DNA of 64,000 nucleotides, from assembly GCA_964016885.1 (NCBI GenBank), contig OZ024744.1:86490001-86554000 (forward strand). The letters are read 5' to 3'. Of the stretch, positions 4,785 through 59,856 are shown piece after piece (the stretch's first letter is position 1; every line of letters starts with the position of its first letter). This DNA is from Eledone cirrhosa (taxonomy: Eukaryota). The notes under the pieces are model-generated. The model ran no database searches, was not told the DNA's origin, and saw only the letters and a program-made list of their open reading frames with translations. The position numbers and the translations under genes were made by a program.

Positions 4785-4845
4785 TAAATGCAAGTATGTA
4801 TGTATACGTACATACATATATGTATACAGACGTACAGTAGCATGC

Positions 4846-4920
<75 letters not shown>

Positions 4921-5272
4921 CAGGTACACATTTTATTACAACTCATCGTTTTCGGTGCGCCTGACCGATTTAACTCACTCGATATGCAAATTAGGCTGTT
5001 CAGCCGTTAATTTTCATAAGGAAAGTATATACTTTCGAACGTTCAACCATCTGGCAGAAGGGTATACGGTGCTGATGATAGCTAACAAGCTTGAAACTAG
5101 TACATCGTTCCTGTGTCAGTGTTGAACAAAAAGGTGACGTGGTTGCCTTAACACCGTACGGCATAAAATTCAGGCTGTTGAGTTTGTTTACAAACGAACA
5201 AAGCGGGCGCTATAATAAGCATCCGCTAAACTGATACGTACATATATGTATGTGTACCTGTATGTATATATC

Positions 5273-5320
<48 letters not shown>

Positions 5321-5430
5321 TGCTACTGTACGTCTGTATACATATATGTATGTACGTATACATACATACTTGCATTTAAGTAAGTGGCGTATTAAGAGTG
5401 AGAAATGAAATTTCGTTTTCATTTTATTAC

Positions 5431-5434
<4 letters not shown>
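4785..5434 (+). mobile_element. Non-coding HHR element family A: inverted fragment plus one permuted monomer
   Basis: Terminal direct repeat CATTTTATTACAACT at 4929 and 5420; 4785-4930 is the reverse complement of about 5251-5378; homologous to 35470-36265. Confidence 0.85.
5066..5108 (+). ncRNA. Minimal type I hammerhead ribozyme (family A)
   Basis: ACGGTG-CTGATGA-TAGCT aaca AGCTT-GAAA-CTAG-TA-CATCGT; palindromic stem III ACTAGT. Confidence 0.85.
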
Positions 5435-16159: not shown

Positions 16160-21075
<4,916 letters not shown>

Positions 21076-29551: not shown

Positions 29552-29824
29552 AGGAGAATCCTGTTGATTTCTATAGAATGAAACAGTTCTAGTCCTGTAG
29601 AATCTCATCTATATTAAAACTTTTATACGCTGCTATGTATTGAGTACCTTACTTACTGTGGTTACCTCCGATTCAACCCTGAATAACGTATATATATATA
29701 TATATACATATATACAGTATTTTCCGTTGTGTTGTAATATAAATATTACACACAGTAGATTATCAGCTCACGTAGAGTTTGCTCGACGGTTCCAGTTGTA
29801 GTTCCAAAAGTAATCCGGAGAAAA

Positions 29825-30460
29825 ATAGAAAGATTTGAATGGATACAGTTTAGTTGAAAGGAATTTATTGACACGTGTTTCTATAACAGTTACATAACCT
29901 AAAACAGCTATCTACAAACTTTTAGTTATGCAGACATTCAATATTTCAATGTTATTATTTACTGTCATTTCATCAGAATAATATTACTGAGGACCTATTT
30001 AGTTTTTATAGAGAATATTAGGAGGGAGGGGTGAAGTTGTTAGAAGAGTAGTTGAAGGAGTGGTTTTTCGATAGCAGTGAGAATTCTTGGTGGCAGTGAG
30101 TAATTAGATTCCCATCTGTTGTTTTGACATTTTTTATAATAATATATTCTATAAAAAATGTCAAAACAACAGATGGGAATCTAATTACTCACTGCCACCA
30201 AGAATTCTCACTGCTATCGAAAAACCACTCCTTCAACTATTCTTCTAACAACTTCACCCCTCCCTCCTAATATTCTCTATAAAAACTAAATAGGTCCTCA
30301 GTAATATTATTCTGATGAAATGACAGTAAATAATAACATTGAAATATTGAATGTCTGCATAACTAAAAGTTTGTAGATAGCTGTTTTAGGTTATGTAACT
30401 GTTATAGAAACACGTGTCAATAAATTCCTTTCAACTAAACTGTATCCATTCAAATCTTTC

Positions 30461-30463
<3 letters not shown>
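29825..30463. repeat. Near-perfect 640-bp palindrome (arms about 314 bp, spacer about 11 nt)
   Basis: Arms read as reverse complements with only about 2 differences noticed. Confidence 0.93.
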
Positions 30464-35375: not shown

Positions 35376-35466
<91 letters not shown>

Positions 35467-35667
35467 TATATACGTACATACATATATGTATACAGACGTA
35501 CAGTAGTATATATATATATACATACATGCACACATATATATATATGTACGGATGGGTTTACCGAACATTTATTATAATGCTCGGTTTGTTTGTAAACAAA
35601 CAGCCCCAATTACGCCGTACAGTGTTTAGCAACCATCGTTGCCCTTTTGTTCAACACTGTCAAAGGA

Positions 35668-35710
35668 ACGATGTACTAGTTTCAAGCTTATAAGCTATCG
35701 TCAGCATCGT
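35668..35710 (-). ncRNA. Minimal type I hammerhead ribozyme (family A)
   Basis: ACGATG-CTGACGA-TAGCT tata AGCTT-GAAA-CTAG-TA-CATCGT. Confidence 0.87.
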
Positions 35711-36205
35711 ATAACTTCCTGCCAGATGATTGAACATCTGAAAGTATATACTTTCCTTATGCATATTAACGCCTAAACAGCCTAATTTGCATATCGAGTG
35801 AGTCAGTCGGCCGGGCACACCGAAAACGATAAATGGAAAAAATGAAACGAAATTTCATTTCTCACTCTTAGTACGGCTGTTACTTAAATATAAGTATGTA
35901 CACGTACATACACATATGTATACAGAAGTACAGTAGTATATATATATATATACATACATGCACACATATATATATGTACGTATGGGTTTACCGAACATTT
36001 ATTATAATGCTCGTATACATACTTATATTTCAGTAACAGCCGTACTTAGAGTGAGAAATGAAATTTCGTTTCATTTTTTCCATTTATCGTTTTCGGTGCG
36101 CCCGGCCGACTAACTCACTCGATATGCAAATTAAGCTGCTCAGCCGTTAATATGCATAAGGAAAGTATATACTTTCAGACGTTCAATCCTCTGGCAGGAA
36201 GGTAT

Positions 36206-36248
36206 ACGATGCTGACGATAGCTAATAAGCTTGAAACTAGTACATCGT
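36206..36248 (+). ncRNA. Minimal type I hammerhead ribozyme (family A)
   Basis: ACGATG-CTGACGA-TAGCT aata AGCTT-GAAA-CTAG-TA-CATCGT. Confidence 0.87.
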
Positions 36249-36271
36249 TCCTTTGTTAGTGTTGACAAGGG

Positions 36272-36440
36272 GGTGAGGGCCGGACGTCATGCTTTAACGC
36301 ATAGAGGTACGGCCCTTGCCATTCTGAGTTCAAATCCCGCCGAGGGTGACTTTGCCTTTCATCCTTACGGGGTCGATAAAATAAAGTACCAGTAATGTAC
36401 TGGGTTATTGCTGGTCTTGTGACAATAGTAGAAACAATTA
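36272..36440 (+). mobile_element. tRNA-derived SINE
   Basis: Family match. Confidence 0.8.
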
Positions 36441-36451
36441 TATTATATTAT

Positions 36452-37405
36452 ATATTGTTATATTTGGGGAGGGTCATATTTGCGTAATATTGCCAGAATT
36501 AATAACAGAACACACTCACTGTTTGGTTGGTTTTCGCTTCTCGCTGTCTTTTATATCTGCGATCTAACTTACTCGGTCCTCAATGTTGCCATTGACTGAC
36601 CGGCGGTCAAAAATAATACAGATACAATATAGACACAAACACATATATATAGTTTACATAAATCTTTCGTTGCACATCTGCAACATCATCAGTGGTGTTA
36701 TATTCATTGTTCCTCCTGTTGTGTTGTATGTCTACGCCATTTTTTATTCAGTCTGTCTATATATTTATTTATTTATTTGCTTGTTTGTTTATCTTATTTT
36801 ATTTTGTATTCTTTGCGCATGCGTTTGCGTGTGTGTATAGTGTTATGTGTGATGTGTGACTAGTGTGCATAGTGTTGTGTCTGCTGGGTGACTAGTGTGT
36901 GTTTATGTGCTTGTTGTTATTTTGCTTGTGTATGTATTTATTTATCTTATTTTATTTTATTTTATTTACTTATTTATACTTCTCTTAGGTCAGTGTTGTT
37001 TGTTTGGGTGTTGTTGTTGTTCCACTCATTCTTTCTGTTTAGCTTTGGTCTTCTAATTTCTATTTCACTGGCCTCTCTGATTTGCCTATCTGCTGGGTCA
37101 TTCCTATGTTTAGATATTATTCTAATTTCTATGTTGTCTATGTTACCGTCATGTTGTTGTCTAGCATGTTCGTATAGTACTGACCCGTTTTTTCGTCCTT
37201 TTAGTTCCCCCCAGTGTTGGTCTATCCTTTCACCTATGCTACGAGTAAGTTAGATCGCAGATATAAAAGACAGCGAGAAGCGAAAACCAACCAAACAGTG
37301 AGTGTGTTCTGTTATTAATTCTGGCAATATTACGCAATTATGACCCTCACCAAATATAACAATATCTGTTTCGACACACTATTTCATATAAAAAACCTCG
37401 CTATT
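36452..37405 (+). mobile_element. PLE-like 3' stub with inverted pLTR fragment
   Basis: Inverted repeat of about 123 bp (36452-36575/37242-37365); DRRSKIIQIQYRHK resembles the Naiad C-terminal tip. Confidence 0.6.
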
Positions 37406-37419
37406 ATATTATATATATA

Positions 37420-37563
37420 AGTTTATCCCGGGTTCAATCGGTAGTAGCCAAAGTAAGTTCTATAGTATTAGAACTGTTTCATTCGGGAGAAATCATCAGG
37501 AATCCGGGTTCCTGGTGATTTCTCCCGAAACAGTTCTAGTCCAGTAGAAGCCTTTCTATATTA
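37420..37563. repeat. Degenerate family C head-to-head HHR fold-back
   Basis: Matches 29496-29690 and 57145-57325; cores and stems mutated. Confidence 0.65.
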
Positions 37564-40398: not shown

Positions 40399-43300
40399 CT
40401 ACAGGCGTATACCCAGAGCGGGCCCGTTCATTCGGACCAGACTCAACACTTTCACCCACCTTTCAACAAACTTACTAGAAGACAGTACTTGCCCCTCCAC
40501 CTGATTTTCCTCTTCAAGTGAAACTTGAAAAAGTTAATCAGGGATTGGCCGGAGAGGAAACTCTTCAACCCTTTCAATCTTGTCCACCACACAATCTCTT
40601 TCGACATGGCCACCAGGCAGATGAAAACTGCCTGCTCTTCCTCCTCTTTAAAGGAGGATGGCGGGGCTATCTGCACAATGGACTCAGTCGATAACCGGAT
40701 CCGTCCTACACGCGACAACAGCTGTTCGAGATAGCTCCACAATTCAGCAATCCTCGGGCACTGAACGAATGCATGCAAGACGGTTTCGTAGCTCTGTGCG
40801 CATCTCGGACAGGCTCGGCTGACAGCACCTCCGTGCCTGTAGAGCTTATCCCTGTCAGGCCAGGGATTTCTGGAAGTTGTCCATAGGCCCCGGTCTGAAG
40901 TTCTCTTGAAGAGAGCGAACAGCTGATTGTCTTCGACGCCCAGGGTCTCCCCGAGAACGTTGTCGCTCTTTAACTCCAATAGCCCTATATAGAACGCCGA
41001 GGTGGATGTTCCACCGATACTAGTGCCCAGCCGGTAGAGGGCCATGAGCGCTTGGAGACATTCCAGCACCCATGCGCTATCCCTCGGTCTTTTCCTGACC
41101 CAGGACTGCAGCTCCGTCAAGGAGACGAGCTGTGGGAAAACGTACCTGGCGAACGGCGACCACACCTGTTCACCGTCAAGGAAGCACCAGAGATAACGCA
41201 GCCTCAGCGCATGTTTGCGCATCATCAGCCATGGCATGCCCAGTCCTCCACGCAACGGTTCTTGACAGCAAATGGATCGTCTGACCATGGGAGCACGTCC
41301 CTTCCACAAAATGCGGAAGAGAAGGCGCTCCATTTTGGTGAGAGTTGGGCAGGGGCAAGGTGCAATTGTCAGGCGGTAACAGATGACGGACGTTATGTAC
41401 TCATTCGCTACCTCCGCCCGACCTTTCAGAGACAACCTCCTCTCGGCCCATTTCTGGGTGAAGGAGGCCACCCTGCTCGTCACCTCGCTCCAGTTTTTCG
41501 CCATCTGGAGGTCCGGACCGAACCAGACCCCAAGCAATTTAACCGGTCCTTCCGTCCAGCGCCCCACGACGTTGTCGGACGGCATGGACTTGCCTCTCCA
41601 GGTGCTGAGTTGCAAGCCCACCGACTATTACTGGTTTATCTTTGCTCATGTCACCGCTTCGTATTCCTTGAGAGCGGGCTTCGTATTCCTTGAGAGCGGT
41701 GCCGAGCATCCGGATGTGTTTGGTGCTCGTCACCACCACGGTGACGTCGTCAGCCTGAGCTGACACCGATCTCCCCGCATCGCAGTTTGCGTGGGACACA
41801 CCTCATCGTCTCCAATTTGTGGAGTAACGGCTCTAGGGCCAGTACGTACAAGAGGGACGAGAAAGGGCAACCCTGCCGGACCGAGCGCATGATTCTGAAA
41901 GGCTGCGACAGATGAACATTCACCCTCACAATCGAGCAGATGTCGCTGTGCATCGCAGCGATCCAGCCCCTAAAACCGGGCCCGAAGCCGGCCACCTCGA
42001 GGACCGCAGCCAGGTACCGATGGTCGACCCTATCAAATGATTTAGATTGATCCAAGTTGATCAGGGCTCCACCCGTGCCAGGTTCGTTAACCACCCTCTC
42101 TATGATGTATCGCATGAGATAGAGGTTGTCGTGGATGGAACTGTCCGGGCTGGCGCACGTCTGCGCCTCTCCCAACGGATCACCGACGACAAGCGCCAAC
42201 TCTTTGCTAACACCTTGGCCAAAATCTTAAACTCTGCGTTTAGCAGAGTTATGGGCCTGAAGTTGTCTATAACGTCCCCCTTGTTCGGGTCTTTTCTCAG
42301 CAGCGCCACCGCTCCCCGGCTCACAAAACTGGGAATGCTCCCGTTCTGCTGCCAGTTGCAGTAAACATCTGCCAAGTGGTCGCCGAACAAGTCTGGCATA
42401 TACGCATAAAACTCGTAGGGCAGACCACCAAACCTGGCGATTTACCCCTCGTGCAGTCAGACGTCGTGCGCCGTATTTCAGCTGCTGTTATCGGCTTTTC
42501 GCAGCAGTGCGCTGCGGTCGCGGCAGTCCGTCGAAGTATGCACCGAAGTTCATACTCCGATCCGACCCGCTGCTGCTCCCGATCAATTGAGCAAAGTGCT
42601 TTTAAAAAGCCGCACACATCTGCTCGGGTGGGAGCAGCTTGCGCCCGTTTTGATCAGACAAAGAGCGAATTGTTGATTTGTTGCCGCGTCGCGCCTTCAC
42701 AACCCGGGCCCATTGAACGGCTTTCGTCCCCTCGCATCTTAGAGCACGCGCTCTAGCTCTGATACGCAGCCTTCATGTTTTGCGTTGAAGAATTGCGCGA
42801 GTGCCAATCTCGCCGCAAGCACGTCGGTTGCGATGCCTGTCTTGAACGCCTCTTCTAGCTTTCTAACTAACTGTCCCTCTACTCTATTTTCCTCTACTTG
42901 ACAGATCACAAATTTGTGGTCCGTGTAGTCGACTAATTTAAATTGTGGACAACCTACACTAGCCTTCTCTGTTACCCTACAGAATACCCTATCTAAATAC
43001 GATCTGGATGACTCATTGTGGTTTGCCCACGTCCACATTGGCACATTCGGATAATCCAGTCTATACCTCTCAGACAGTTTAAAACGTCTGAGCAGGTTGT
43101 TGAGGCTTTTACACCCTCCTTTTCTGTCTACCAGACCCACATAATCTCAGCGTGCATCTAAGATACCGTTCCAGTCGCACACCAACACTAAAGAGCGGGA
43201 CGTTCCAAGAAAGGTCTCTAGACGTCTGAAGAAATGTGGCCGTCCTACCCCAGTTGGGGCGTAGATGGCTACTAACCTGAAAGCATTGCCTTCGCTGCCG

Positions 43301-50061: not shown

Positions 50062-52395
50062 ATAGTAATAATAATAAATTTGAAGACTAAAATCCAAAGA
50101 AGGCTCGATAGGGATAAATATATATCAAATATATAAGAACCGTAGAGCAAATATTTATTAAAATAACCGATTAGAGTTTAAGCAAAGAATCGCTGCTTTC
50201 ACCCTTAAGGGGATCTTCTGAAACTAAAAAAATCAATCTGTGAACGCAGAAGTAAATATTTCGAAAAACGTTGCACCCACGAAGACGATACTTTGGTTCG
50301 TGGATATGTACCCTGGCAATGAACGGAAAACAAGCGAAGATAATACGTCACTATTTGGAGCGCCGAGAACAATTACACGCGAAGACAAATCCACGTTTAT
50401 GGTATAAAAGAAGTTGTAGACTATTATTCTATTTAAGTGGTTCGAGGAGACGGTCCCTGGTAATGAATGGGTTTCGGTGAGGCTTTCCCGTCTATCGACA
50501 AACGAGCATATTTTCACCGACCATTCCACATATTACAATGAGCCTGTTGCTCGGAGTGGATTTGTCGATAAGGTAGCATATACTGAGTATGAGCATAGAC
50601 CTAGGAAAAATAGATCCCGACCAGTTATATGGTATAACCCACCATATAATATGGAGGTGGCCACACCATTAGCTAAGATCTTTCTCTCCCTCATTAAGAA
50701 GCATTTCCCTCAAACACATAAATATAATAACATTTTTAATAGAAATACCATTAAAATGTCTTACTCTACGACTCCTAACCTTGCACATAACATCACTGCT
50801 TCAAATTTAGCTAAATTATCTAGTCGTAGGAACACATGCACCCCTGTAGCTAGTACTAACTGTAATTGTAGGAATCGGGTTGACTGCCCCCTATCCAGGA
50901 AATGCCTCTCCAGAAACATTGTCTACAAATGTAAGGTTGAAACACCCACGTCCCGTAGGGCTACATAGTGTTAACCGCCAATAGATTGAAGCAGCGTCTT
51001 TACATGCATACCCATTCTTTTCTTAACCCTTTAAGAAGGAATATGACGTCACTTTCAGCTTATATCTGGAGTCTAAAAGACAACCACACCCAATATAGGT
51101 TACACTGGGAGGTCCTAGCTAAAGCTAGATCGTATAACGGAAATAAAAGACCATGTGACCTCTGCACCGCTGAAGCCCTGGAAATACTCTACGCCAATGA
51201 CTACATCTTAAACAAAAAATCTGAGCCAATTTCGGCTTGTAAATATAATTGCATAAAACTTTCCTGTATTACAGCCCCACATTATACCCTAACGGATAGT
51301 ACGAACAATACGCGGATAATTTACGTCTTGATGTGGTAGCTCAGTATATTTTATGTTTATACCATTATTTATTTGTATAGGTATGTATATATTACCCATA
51401 TGTTTTGTGAAGGTACGTATACTTTCTCGTACGTATATTTGCTTGTATTTGTTATAGGTGTATATATTATATTATATATACTGGTACATGCATATATAGT
51501 TATGTGTATACGTGTATTTTGCTTTTGTGTGTGTAGGGGGTTTCGCACGTATATTGGGTGTGTATATGTGTACTTTGTGTTTTGGTTGACGTAGTTTAGC
51601 GAACATATGTGTATTTACCTGTAGGTGTGTGTGTGCGTGAGTCATATACGTATTTATGTGTGTCTATTTATATACGTTTATATAATTATATGTATACATA
51701 TACATATATTTTATATATTTTTTTATGTGTATTTCGTGTACACGTTCGTATGCGTGCGAGTACAGGTCTTGCGCGGGTTATTGTATGTGTGCGCGTGTTT
51801 TGGGGAACGTGCTTGTATATGGTTACCATGGCGGGTGTTTTCGCGTATGAATGTGTATGTACGTTTATGGATGCGTGCACGTATATATTTAATTATTGTT
51901 GATTTCAATAACCTCTGTAATTTATTTACATTATTCTTAACTCTGAAGCCGAAAATCATTCGTTTCCTAAGTAGAATATTAGTCTACGACTTCAGTTATA
52001 CCATTTACGTTGTCTTGTCTTTGAGTGCAATTGTTCTCACGTCCACACAATAACGTATTATCTTCGCTTTTTTCCGTTCATTGCCAGGGAACGTCTCCTC
52101 GAACCACCTAAATAGAATATTAGTCTACGACTTCTTTTATACCATCAACGTTGTTTTGTCTTTGCGTGTAATTGCTCTCACCGCTCCAAATAAAGAGGTA
52201 TTATCTTCGCATTTTTTTCGTTCATTGCCAGGGAACGTTTCCATGAACCAAAGTATCGTCTTCCTGATTGAAACTTTTTTCGAAATATTTCCTTCTGCGT
52301 CCACAGATTGATTTTTTTAATTTCAGGAGATCCTATTAAAGGTGAAAGCAGCGATTCTTTGCTTAAACTTTAATCTGGTATTTTAATAAATAAAT
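50062..52395 (+). mobile_element. 5'-truncated Naiad-type Penelope-like element with inverted pLTR on its 5' side, in (TA)n
   Basis: About 50150-50470 is the reverse complement of about 52075-52392; coding remnant between; tandem duplication of about 142 bp in the 3' region. Confidence 0.85.
50477..51260 (+). pseudogene. Naiad PLE RT thumb/linker + GIY-YIG endonuclease, frameshift near 50962
   Basis: VIWYNPPY, KHFP..IFNRNTIKMSYS, CNCRNRVDCPL..CL, IVY..YI(V)LT, LSAYIWSLK, CDLC..E, LNKKSE. Confidence 0.87.
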
Positions 52396-55833: not shown

Positions 55834-56192
55834 TAAATATGTTTTGAAACAGTGAGCAGGTTTGAAATTAGAAAATAGAATAGCTTTCGCCGTATTTTTT
55901 TACTAAAGAAATTTTAGTCTGATAATGGGGTTTAGAACCCTCAGATAAATGGAAAAAGATGAGTATTGACGTACATGGGCGTCGAACCCACATCTTTGGT
56001 TATCAGAACACTGTGCTACCATTTACACCAACACATCACCCATCTCCTTCTATTCAAATTTCTTTAGTCAAAAATACGGTGAAAGCTATTCTATTTTCTA
56101 ATTTCAAACCTGCTCACTGTTTCAAAACATATTTATTTGTCATTTATACTCGCTATGAATGTAGCTTCTAATTGGAATGGAAGGAGATGGGT

Positions 56193-56264
56193 GATGTGTT
56201 GGTGTAAATGGTAGCACAGTGGTCAGGATAACCAAAGATCTGGGTTCGACTCCCATTTACGTCA
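56193..56264 (+). pseudogene. tRNA-like sequence with irregular anticodon arm; inverted copy at 55967-56037
   Basis: A-box TGGTGTAAATGG, D stem GTGT/GCAC, T arm TGGG-TTCGACT-CCCA, T5 run about 10 nt downstream. Confidence 0.65.
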
Positions 56265-57148: not shown

Positions 57149-57204
57149 GAGCTTCTACAGGACGACTAGAACTGTTTCATTCGTGAGAAATCATCAGGAA
57201 GCTC
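57149..57204 (-). ncRNA. Type I hammerhead ribozyme (family C); overlapping inverted copy at 57200-57249 (+)
   Basis: GAGCTTC-CTGATGA-TTTC tcac GAAT-GAAA-CAG..CTG-TA-GAAGCTC. Confidence 0.8.
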
Positions 57205-57723: not shown

Positions 57724-57989
57724 CCGACTGCATTCAGTTTGGCTATACTTAAACTCAAGCTACGCTTGCATGTTATACATACGCGTGGATATACATGCAT
57801 GTGTGTGCATGTATGTGTACATATGCGTATACTATTCGGTGTCATTCTCACTCGCACATTTGGAAATGTGTGCGTCGAAACACGTGCTGCACCGTGCCAG
57901 CGTGCAGACGCCAATAACTATATATTAATTACTTTAAAATTACTGTTGGCGTATCTCTGTTTCCTCACTTTCGTCAATATTTTCAAACA

Positions 57990-59856
57990 TCACTAATACC
58001 ACAGCCAACCCTGCCACCACCACCACCACCATCATCATCATCAACAAGACAGACCAACACCACCACCACCACCACCACCAACACCACCACCAACACTACT
58101 AACACCAACACCAACACTATCACCACCAACATCACCACCAACACTACCACAACCGACACCACCACCACCACCTAAAACACCACCAACACTACCACCACCA
58201 CTAGCATCACCACCATCACCACTACCACCACCACCAACAACAACAACAACAACAATACCACCACCAATACCACCACCACTACTGCCACCACCACCACCAC
58301 CACCACCACCACCACCACAACCAATACCACCACCAAAACTACCAGCGCCGCCACCACCATCATCACCACCACCACAACCACCACCACCAACACTACCACC
58401 ACAACCAATACCACCACCAACACTACCACCGCCACCACCATCATCACCACCAACACCACCACCACCACCACCAACACTACCACCACCTACACCAACACCA
58501 CCACCAACACCACCACCACCACCAACACTACCACCACCACCACCAACACTACCACCACCTACACCAACACCACCACCAACACCATCATCACCACCAACAC
58601 CACCACCACCACCACCAACACTACCACCACCTACACCAACACCACCGCCACCACCATCATCACCACCAACACCACCACCACCACCACCAACACTACCACC
58701 ACCTACACCAACACCACCACCAACACCACCACCACCACCAACACTACCACCACCACCACCAACACTACCACCACCTACACCAACACCACCACCAACACCA
58801 TCATCACCACCAACACCACCACCACCACCACCAACACTACCACCACCTACACCAACACCACCGCCACCACCATCATCACCACCAACACCAACACCACCAC
58901 CACCAACACTACCACCACCTACACCAACACCAGCACCAACACCACCACCACCACCAACACTACCACCACCACCACCAACACTACCACCACCTACACCAAC
59001 ACCACCACCAACACCATCATCACCACCAACACTACCACCACCACCACCAACACCACCACCAACACCACCACCACCACTACTACCACCACCACCACCAGCA
59101 CTACCACCACCACCAATAACAACAACAACACTACCACCACCACCACCAATACCACCACCAACACTACCACCAACACTACCACCAACACCACCACCACTAC
59201 CACCACCACCACCACCAGCACTACCACCACCACCACCACCACTACCACCACCACCACCACCACCAGCACTACCACCACCACCAATGACACCACCACTACT
59301 ACCACCACCACAAACACTACCACCATCACCAATATCACCACCAACACTACTACCACCATCACCACCTCCACCATCACTAACACTACCACCGCCATCACCG
59401 CCAGCACCACTACCACCACCGCCATCACCACCACCAACACTACCACCGCCACCACCAACACCACCACCAACACTACCACCACCACCACCACCACTACCAC
59501 CACCGCCATCACCACCACCAACACTACCACCGCCACCACCAACACCACCACCAACACTACCACTACCATCACCGCCACCAACTTTACCACTACCACCGCC
59601 ATCACCACCAACAACACTACCACCACCACCACCAACACTACCACCACCAACACTACCACTACCACCGCCATCACCGCCACCAACACTACCACTACCACCG
59701 CCACCACCACCACCAACACTACCACCACCGCCACCACTACCACCACCAACACTACCAGCACCACCACCATCACCGCCAGCAACAGTACCACCACCACCAC
59801 CACCACCACCGCCACCACCACCAACAACAACAACAACCACAACAACAACAACAACT
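57990..59856. repeat. Degenerate (CCA)n tract with a 216-bp higher-order repeat
   Basis: CCGCCACCACCATCATC at about 58429, 58645 and 58861. Confidence 0.9.

Follow-up and report, generated by a model that had tools for sequence, protein, structure and literature searches.

Background

The closest described systems are the metazoan non-LTR retrozymes of coral, mussel and axolotl (Cervera and de la Pena 2020, PMC7229834). These are tandem repeats with hammerhead ribozymes that yield circular RNAs, with Penelope-like elements (PLEs) proposed as their motor. As described there, each unit carries a type I hammerhead, and the tandems are short, low in GC and devoid of ORFs; they occur in thousands of copies together with co-resident PLEs and are predicted to form compact circles. 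Vertebrate retrozymes are likewise reported to depend on PLEs and to occur as monomers, dimers and multimers (bioRxiv 10.64898/2026.07.22.740005). The sampling given in the main part of that preprint covers vertebrates, three insects and a coral, with no mollusc. In the text of both sources the motor enzyme of animal retrozymes and the circle as a template are still hypotheses.

PLE insertions are truncated at the 5' end, have an inverted copy upstream and carry a tail on one side (PMC8557442 and its preprint). In vitro, the sequence between two internal start sites of reverse transcription makes up the tail (PMC11167929). Members of the Hydra clade, according to section 11 of PMC8557442, have RWR, DKT and CxCx5C motifs, insert into (TA)n and carry hammerheads.

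Here we analyze a window of 64,000 nucleotides from the 3.0-Gb assembly of the octopus Eledone cirrhosa (contig OZ024744.1, positions 86,490,001 to 86,554,000) and the repeat family to which two insertions in this window belong. By every feature that can be tested in the sequence, the element behaves as a metazoan non-LTR retrozyme that appears to be moved by PLE machinery, its cleavage and its circle being predicted. The genomic traits by which such retrozymes are recognized were found: a hammerhead in each unit, tandems of a few hundred bp, GC content below 45%, absence of coding capacity and co-resident PLEs. The class is already known; the value of the family lies in its clear insertion footprint and the hints of rolling-circle copying.

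The U-U at the base of helix II recurs in one axolotl ribozyme of PMC7229834. The element is unrelated in sequence to the retrozymes of that paper and its monomer is slightly longer (430-470 nt). Circles and cleavage were shown for those retrozymes, whereas this family is known from the genome. Two RT-start ends, paired long and short inverted arms and (TA)n targeting, all seen here, are not described in the consulted sections of PMC7229834. The case made in the preprint is based on co-occurrence and pLTR homology; ours is based on the insertion footprint, and pLTR homology was not found in the Hydra-type families compared.

With the Hydra-clade and other EN+ PLEs (PMC8557442, PMC11167929) the copies share 5' truncation, an inverted upstream copy, (TA)n targeting, a hammerhead, and a tail on one end produced from two RT start sites. 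However, they lack the RT/GIY-YIG ORF, their tail is 56-69 nt rather than 30-40 nt, and they form seamless full-monomer tandems where these PLEs have partial ones. Non-autonomous Chlamys PLEs such as MRC1 (PMC8557442) are similarly non-coding, with pLTR-like redundancy and multicopy head-to-tail insertions, but they are green algal, have 3' sequences in common with autonomous partners and mostly lack a canonical hammerhead.

In the literature outside subscription papers, supplements, Repbase and Dfam, we found no description of a cephalopod retrozyme, nor of retrozyme tails or RT start sites; the word "ribozyme" does not occur in the main text of the curated Octopus vulgaris repeat paper (PMC13282606). 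The family makes both hypotheses named above testable, as it provides predicted RT start sites, a target repeat, young identical arrays and intact Hydra-type ORFs.

Two insertions in the window

The main insertion contains 1.3 units of a non-coding 430-nt monomer on the minus strand with an intact hammerhead (Table 1). Monomer coordinates are counted from the base right after the predicted cut site (c1). The copies of the terminal redundancy are identical in 120 of 127 aligned columns. The first-pass annotation had reported a direct repeat of about 113 nt with a period of 430 nt; the period is correct, and the repeat is somewhat longer. It had also described the single enclosed hammerhead, which is indeed present, as minimal. 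This designation does not hold: minimal hammerheads (min-HHR) have no helix III, a long helix II and a short helix I according to PMC4209133, whereas helices I, II and III have 6, 4-5 and 2 bp here. The adjoining inverted partial copy with its own intact hammerhead was confirmed, being 93% complementary to the main arm. It ends 23 nt past its own cut site, beside a SINE-like insert, a non-canonical end. As previously stated, the copy has no ORF; no sense ATG-ORF longer than 47 codons was found in it.

At 35829, corresponding to the long 3' end of the family, 57-67 independent contigs per run (three runs of one sample) switch to (TA)n; these contigs are uninformative on RNA ends.

The second insertion, at 4.9 kb, belongs to another subfamily. 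Its plus arm has 80-83% identity to the main insertion and is paired with a minus arm, which had been missed before, giving a long and short pair. This copy was earlier placed at 4929-5434 and said to begin and end at a different point of the same sequence. The end does differ, as the second member of a pair of fixed 3' ends and not through free permutation.

Table 1. Features of the two insertions (positions in the window)
Feature	Position	Strand	Comment
Main arm, subfamily A1	35455..36013	-	c91-c430, then c1-c217; terminates at the "short" fixed 3' end
Terminal redundancy, 5' copy	35885..36013	-	about 129 nt
Terminal redundancy, 3' copy	35455..35583	-	430 nt downstream of the 5' copy
Type I hammerhead, core intact	35668..35710	-	predicted cut between 35674 and 35673
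"Long" 3' end position of the family (tail end, ~c273)	35829..35831	-	internal in the window copy
(TA)n microsatellite target	35379..35455	.	3' end of the main arm enters (TA)n
Inverted 5'-truncated arm	36007..36265	+	head-to-head with the main arm; 93% complementary
Second intact hammerhead	36206..36248	+	predicted cut after 36242
Second insertion, plus arm, subfamily A2	4945..5432	+	terminates at the "long" 3' end, then (TA)n
Hammerhead of the second insertion	5066..5108	+	within the plus arm
Inverted arm of the second insertion	4785..4930 (approx.)	-	terminates at the "short" 3' end

When the window was scanned on both strands for hammerhead cores whose helix III is short, seven matches emerged, three of which have the full 6-bp helix I: 35710 (minus), 36206 and 5066 (plus). 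Rfam produced no hammerhead match, either at the gathering threshold or among the 55 matches at E<=10; below the threshold it listed AT-hairpin miRNA look-alikes only.

A repeat resembling a tRNA-derived SINE occupies 36266-36440 and is frequent in the flanks of the copies; we take it to be similar to octopus SINEs.

Ribozyme and monomer folding

The family A hammerhead has a helix I of 6 bp, a helix II of 4 bp standing on the U-U, and a palindromic helix III of 2 bp. In family B, described below, helix II has 5 bp and a G-C pair replaces the U-U. The core is kept at invariant positions in 93-100% of the aligned copies. By its sequence the motif conforms to the canonical metazoan type I form, which requires dimerization (PMC4209133). 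The LTR retrozymes of plants, which carry type III hammerheads in LTRs, PBS and PPT, were considered and rejected, as the topology here is type I and the redundancy is variable in length.

When 11 distinct sequences are aligned, both partners differ in 6 of the 16 pairs, and 94% of the cells are paired, compared to 31-52% in slid controls. This covariation is mostly a single contrast between families A and B, that is, essentially two lineages; an extra helix II swap is seen inside family B. The isolated hammerhead is no more stable than its shuffles (z from -0.3 to -1.6) and its minimum-energy fold differs from the active one. Whole monomers are predicted to fold into compact circles (z of -5.9, -9.1 and -8.2, 40 shuffles each), these z-scores being inflated in part because of AT palindromes. 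The sense fold is 24-35 kcal/mol better than the antisense one.

Family size and tandem arrays

The genome matches the 26-mer across the cut site exactly at 16,475 places, and the 22-mer downstream of it at 19,450; the reversed control of each has none. Thus the hammerhead repeat is not due to chance. These totals count units and not insertions, family A comprising at least 16,475 of them. Measured from cut to cut, the monomers are about 420-540 nt long; 37 distinct ones fall into two subfamilies that are 83% alike. Subfamily A1 (about 430 nt, 93% identity within) includes the main insertion, and A2 (about 465-480 nt, 96%) the copy at 4.9 kb. Family B, first met adjoining an A1 copy, has a homologous 467-nt hammerhead monomer with 67% identity to family A; its hammerhead pattern has 9,604 matches, and the first 100 are all B. 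Families A and B add at least 26,000 hammerhead units to the genome annotation; as a repeat family alone, this is ordinary. Family B is very young (loci L136:3385-3945, L188-L208, L259-L308) and, with its long arrays, is the best material for experiments.

Tandem hammerhead units, which the first-pass annotation named as a trait of metazoan retrozymes, are formed by both families. Arrays reach 31 hammerheads in family B and include one of 13 in A1; they are seamless across the cut site, and past the long end re-enter the hammerhead without a gap. The monomer has a GC content of 36%, and the longest sense ATG-ORFs in three copies have 47-58 codons. An antisense frame of 112 codons in A2 traverses a microsatellite. 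The RT and GIY-YIG ORF of an autonomous PLE is absent from the retrozyme copies.

A search for additional hammerheads with an identical helix III yielded 77 matches; the 30 loci fetched from them comprise 24 diverged A-type copies and 6 unrelated sequences, with no PLE pLTR.

Copy ends and insertion footprint

The survey of ends covers 57 loci, picked by their order in the genome among the 26-mer matches and all spanning the cut site; a few "arms" are alignment fragments, and the counts are therefore approximate. Out of 100 arm 3' ends, 45 are long, 42 short and 13 other, so that 87 coincide with either of two fixed sites, which are separated by 56-59 nt (c217 and c273 in A1, c249 and c308 in A2). 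The 5' ends are scattered across the whole monomer. Among 30 head-to-head pairs, 20 combine a long and a short arm, two are short with short and none is long with long. Directly beyond 53 of 63 canonical ends lies (TA)n. The same two-end anatomy is repeated in three family B arrays at c234 and c303. The earlier idea of a circularly permuted family has to be abandoned, as only the 5' ends vary.

Two fixed 3' ends, (TA)n and head-to-head long and short arms constitute the PLE "tail" footprint. Since this footprint is common to the copies and to PLEs, the element is very likely a non-autonomous retrozyme mobilized by a PLE.

Co-resident Penelope-like elements

The genome contains many candidate motors. 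A first look for the PLE endonuclease region gave 61,489 candidates, with many open frames of 758 codons, and PLEs that have RWR/RWK, DKT and CxCx5C motifs are abundant; Pfam matches to GIY-YIG are weak. An initial assignment of these PLEs to Neptune was dropped, as the motifs match the Hydra clade. The protein of Hydra-type PLE family A has 713 aa with RWR, DKT and CxCx5C. At 16 of 20 ends this PLE stops at one of two positions 72 nt apart and is followed by (TA)n, a footprint like that of the retrozyme. The earlier proposal of Penelope-like machinery is supported by this match and by the two fixed 3' ends and (TA)n of the retrozyme copies; on balance, the Hydra clade seems to provide the motor.

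PLE family A is young and high-copy, its intact ORFs being 98% identical (e.g. L075:3140-5921), and a hammerhead of its own lies about 175 nt upstream of the start codon. The other PLE families are B-E, D2 and D3. That the retrozyme is the pLTR of PLE family A is ruled out by the different hammerhead and UTR of the latter. Within the Hydra-type families, to which the UTR comparison was confined, the monomer has no homology to the UTRs of six families (A, D, D2 and D3 by BLAST, C and E by reading UTRs and hammerheads). About 135 loci screened with a PLE protein contain no ORF after the monomer at a recurring point.

At four loci (L027, L123, L141, L151) a retrozyme arm directly joins a piece of a Hydra-type PLE without an intervening microsatellite. 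The composite at L027 has the PLE short end on one side and the retrozyme long end on the other. Three joined pieces of the position-sampled set form one related group (71-91% nucleotide identity, family C type), while family E pieces are separated from retrozyme arms by (TA)n. For the joint at L141, simple insertion into a PLE may be the cause, and the direct joints may be chance adjacency via the common (TA)n target. At 3 of 8 loci copies lie close to PLE family D, which was dismissed as a link because the same target explains it.

Other PLE-related sequences were noted. A 5'-truncated family E element with an inverted arm lies at 50066-52392 in the window; (TA)n follows both its long end, near 50066, and its short end, at 52392. 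Hammerhead motifs like that of PLE family A, some head-to-head, occur at 29552, 37460-37560 and 57197-57203 and are likely pLTR remnants. Another family of tandem hammerheads (L036:1740-2052, L173:2236-2546), which repeats about every 310 nt and resembles PLE family A in its core, is possibly a retrozyme with an identifiable partner. An RT fragment of a different PLE type, presumably Poseidon-like, is found at L031:282-635 (minus strand).

The repeat at 36445-37366 was rejected as the 3' UTR of a partner; it is a separate element that also resides in (TA)n at L123. Its sequence inverts at about 37243 and its ends lie in (TA)n, and a near-identical stretch (L123:7885-8680) runs on into possible coding sequence. 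A genome search with this region gave no match, which is uninformative for a common repeat.

Template and mechanism

Most arms run through the cut site: 73 of 101 cross it at least once, in a sample picked for spanning it, and mostly without a scar. Thus the template was a circle or an uncut multimer, as the first-pass annotation had suggested. A cut linear monomer as the main template was rejected, since there is no clear peak of 5' ends at c1: four of 100 arms start at c2-c4, and about 13 of about 65 truncation-type 5' ends, counted by eye, fall at c-1 to c2, compared to about 15 expected from a flat distribution.

In young A2 insertions the difference is 0.7% between tandem units, 1.4% between arms and 5.0% between loci. 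Variants both fixed within and private to one insertion were found at only 6 of 20 A2 and 5 of 33 A1 loci. At the A2 locus L307:1716-4550 (G000:C1:184.44 Mb), all five 465-nt units are identical, and so is the 260-nt inverted arm; the ends are the canonical long and short ones. At all five crossings a 7-nt deletion directly abuts the cut site on its upstream side and destroys the ribozyme; no other A2-type locus has it. In its sequence this pattern fits rolling-circle copying of one circle. In L292/L293, 18 full family B units are identical over both arms, the nearest sampled locus being five differences away.

Other arrays are heterogeneous, with 11 of 18 (L289), 11 of 14 (L291) and 7 of 9 (L303) units distinct and with recurring unit variants, so that multimeric templates or later DNA exchange are needed. 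Unequal exchange between terminal repeats is a possible source of array expansion. L307 is one of five loci with such deletions; at L315, L321, L322 and L326 one crossing has a deletion and the neighboring one is intact. Deletions of at least 3 nt just before the cut site are not enriched (15 events, and 15 in a control window).

The reading that we consider probable as a whole is a retrozyme that would cleave itself, circularize and be copied into (TA)n by a PLE, most likely of the Hydra clade; that the circular monomer is a template seems rather likely. Arrays would be transcribed, every hammerhead in the transcript would cut, probably as a dimer formed via the palindromic helix III, and the monomers would be ligated into circles. 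The PLE protein would nick (TA)n and, on both strands, start cDNA at two sites 56 nt apart within the RNA (c217 and c273 in A1). The reverse transcriptase would read past the former cut site and keep going round until it falls off, making from 0.5 to more than 10 units per arm, and the two 5'-truncated cDNAs would be joined head-to-head. The window copy would be the product of 1.3 turns. More tentatively, a Hydra-clade PLE may read the ribozyme-made circle by structure and not by sequence, prime both strands and roll many times; L307 might then be the fossil of a circle trimmed by 7 nt at its end before ligation.

If circles are not templates, the copies would be non-autonomous PLEs made from linear uncleaved multimers only, or by RT jumps over the terminal redundancy, and long arrays would grow later by unequal DNA exchange, with the hammerhead retained. 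This is in line with the anole PLE, for which PMC11167929 reports uncleaved RNA as the main substrate in vitro and normal insertion of ribozyme mutants, with the heterogeneous arrays and their periodic variants, and with the lack of an excess of either 5' ends at the cut site or junction deletions. However, L307 would demand a ribozyme-dead source array, absent from the assembly, or a perfect expansion after insertion. The 18 identical units of L292/L293, spread over both arms, and the retention of hammerhead and compact fold between families merely 67% alike also speak against it, and we regard copying from linear RNA alone as unlikely.

Two further explanations concern the nature of the element itself. 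The copies have the end anatomy of PLE pLTRs, vertebrate retrozymes are often pLTR-homologous according to bioRxiv 10.64898/2026.07.22.740005, and the search for a partner took in part of PLE diversity; the copies might thus be solo or truncated pLTRs of an autonomous PLE. This is very improbable given the gapless return to the hammerhead past the long end in arrays of 13 (A1) and 31 (B) and the lack of a recurring ORF behind the monomer at about 135 loci, as a pLTR master should leave ORF-linked copies. Still harder to credit is that DNA recombination or transposition spread a minisatellite or a MITE-like DNA element whose hammerhead is a relic. This would account for the inverted arms, the tandem arrays and the AT microsatellite inside the copies, but not for strand polarity (3' fixed, 5' ragged), unequal arms of variable length, the absence of terminal inverted repeats and a fold specific to the sense strand, and the end survey largely refutes it. 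The first-pass annotation took fixed ends, attachment to a coding PLE and missing tandem junctions as signs against a retrozyme. Fixed ends do occur, at 3'; no attachment to a coding PLE was found and tandem junctions are present. Fixed ends are compatible with the retrozyme reading because they are a PLE signature that coexists with true tandem junctions.

If this more tentative reading of a circle copied many times is true, the families preserve a direct genomic record of a cycle so far only proposed. The writing of multimers into (TA)n by a PLE reverse transcriptase, with a small RNA circle as template, would be of interest as a gene-writing mechanism.

Other features of the window

Fragments of a LINE reverse transcriptase, which we assume to be L1/Tx1-like, lie at 40452-42226 on the minus strand, with an inverted partner near 2680-2993. 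Two inverted tRNA-like matches at 55967-56264 are just above the Rfam threshold and are probably SINE heads. A perfect 314-nt inverted repeat with an 11-nt spacer (29825-30463) probably stems from a head-to-head insertion of very recent date. Microsatellites are abundant in the genome, and a CAC/CAA-rich tandem array of 1.8 kb occupies 57981-59855.
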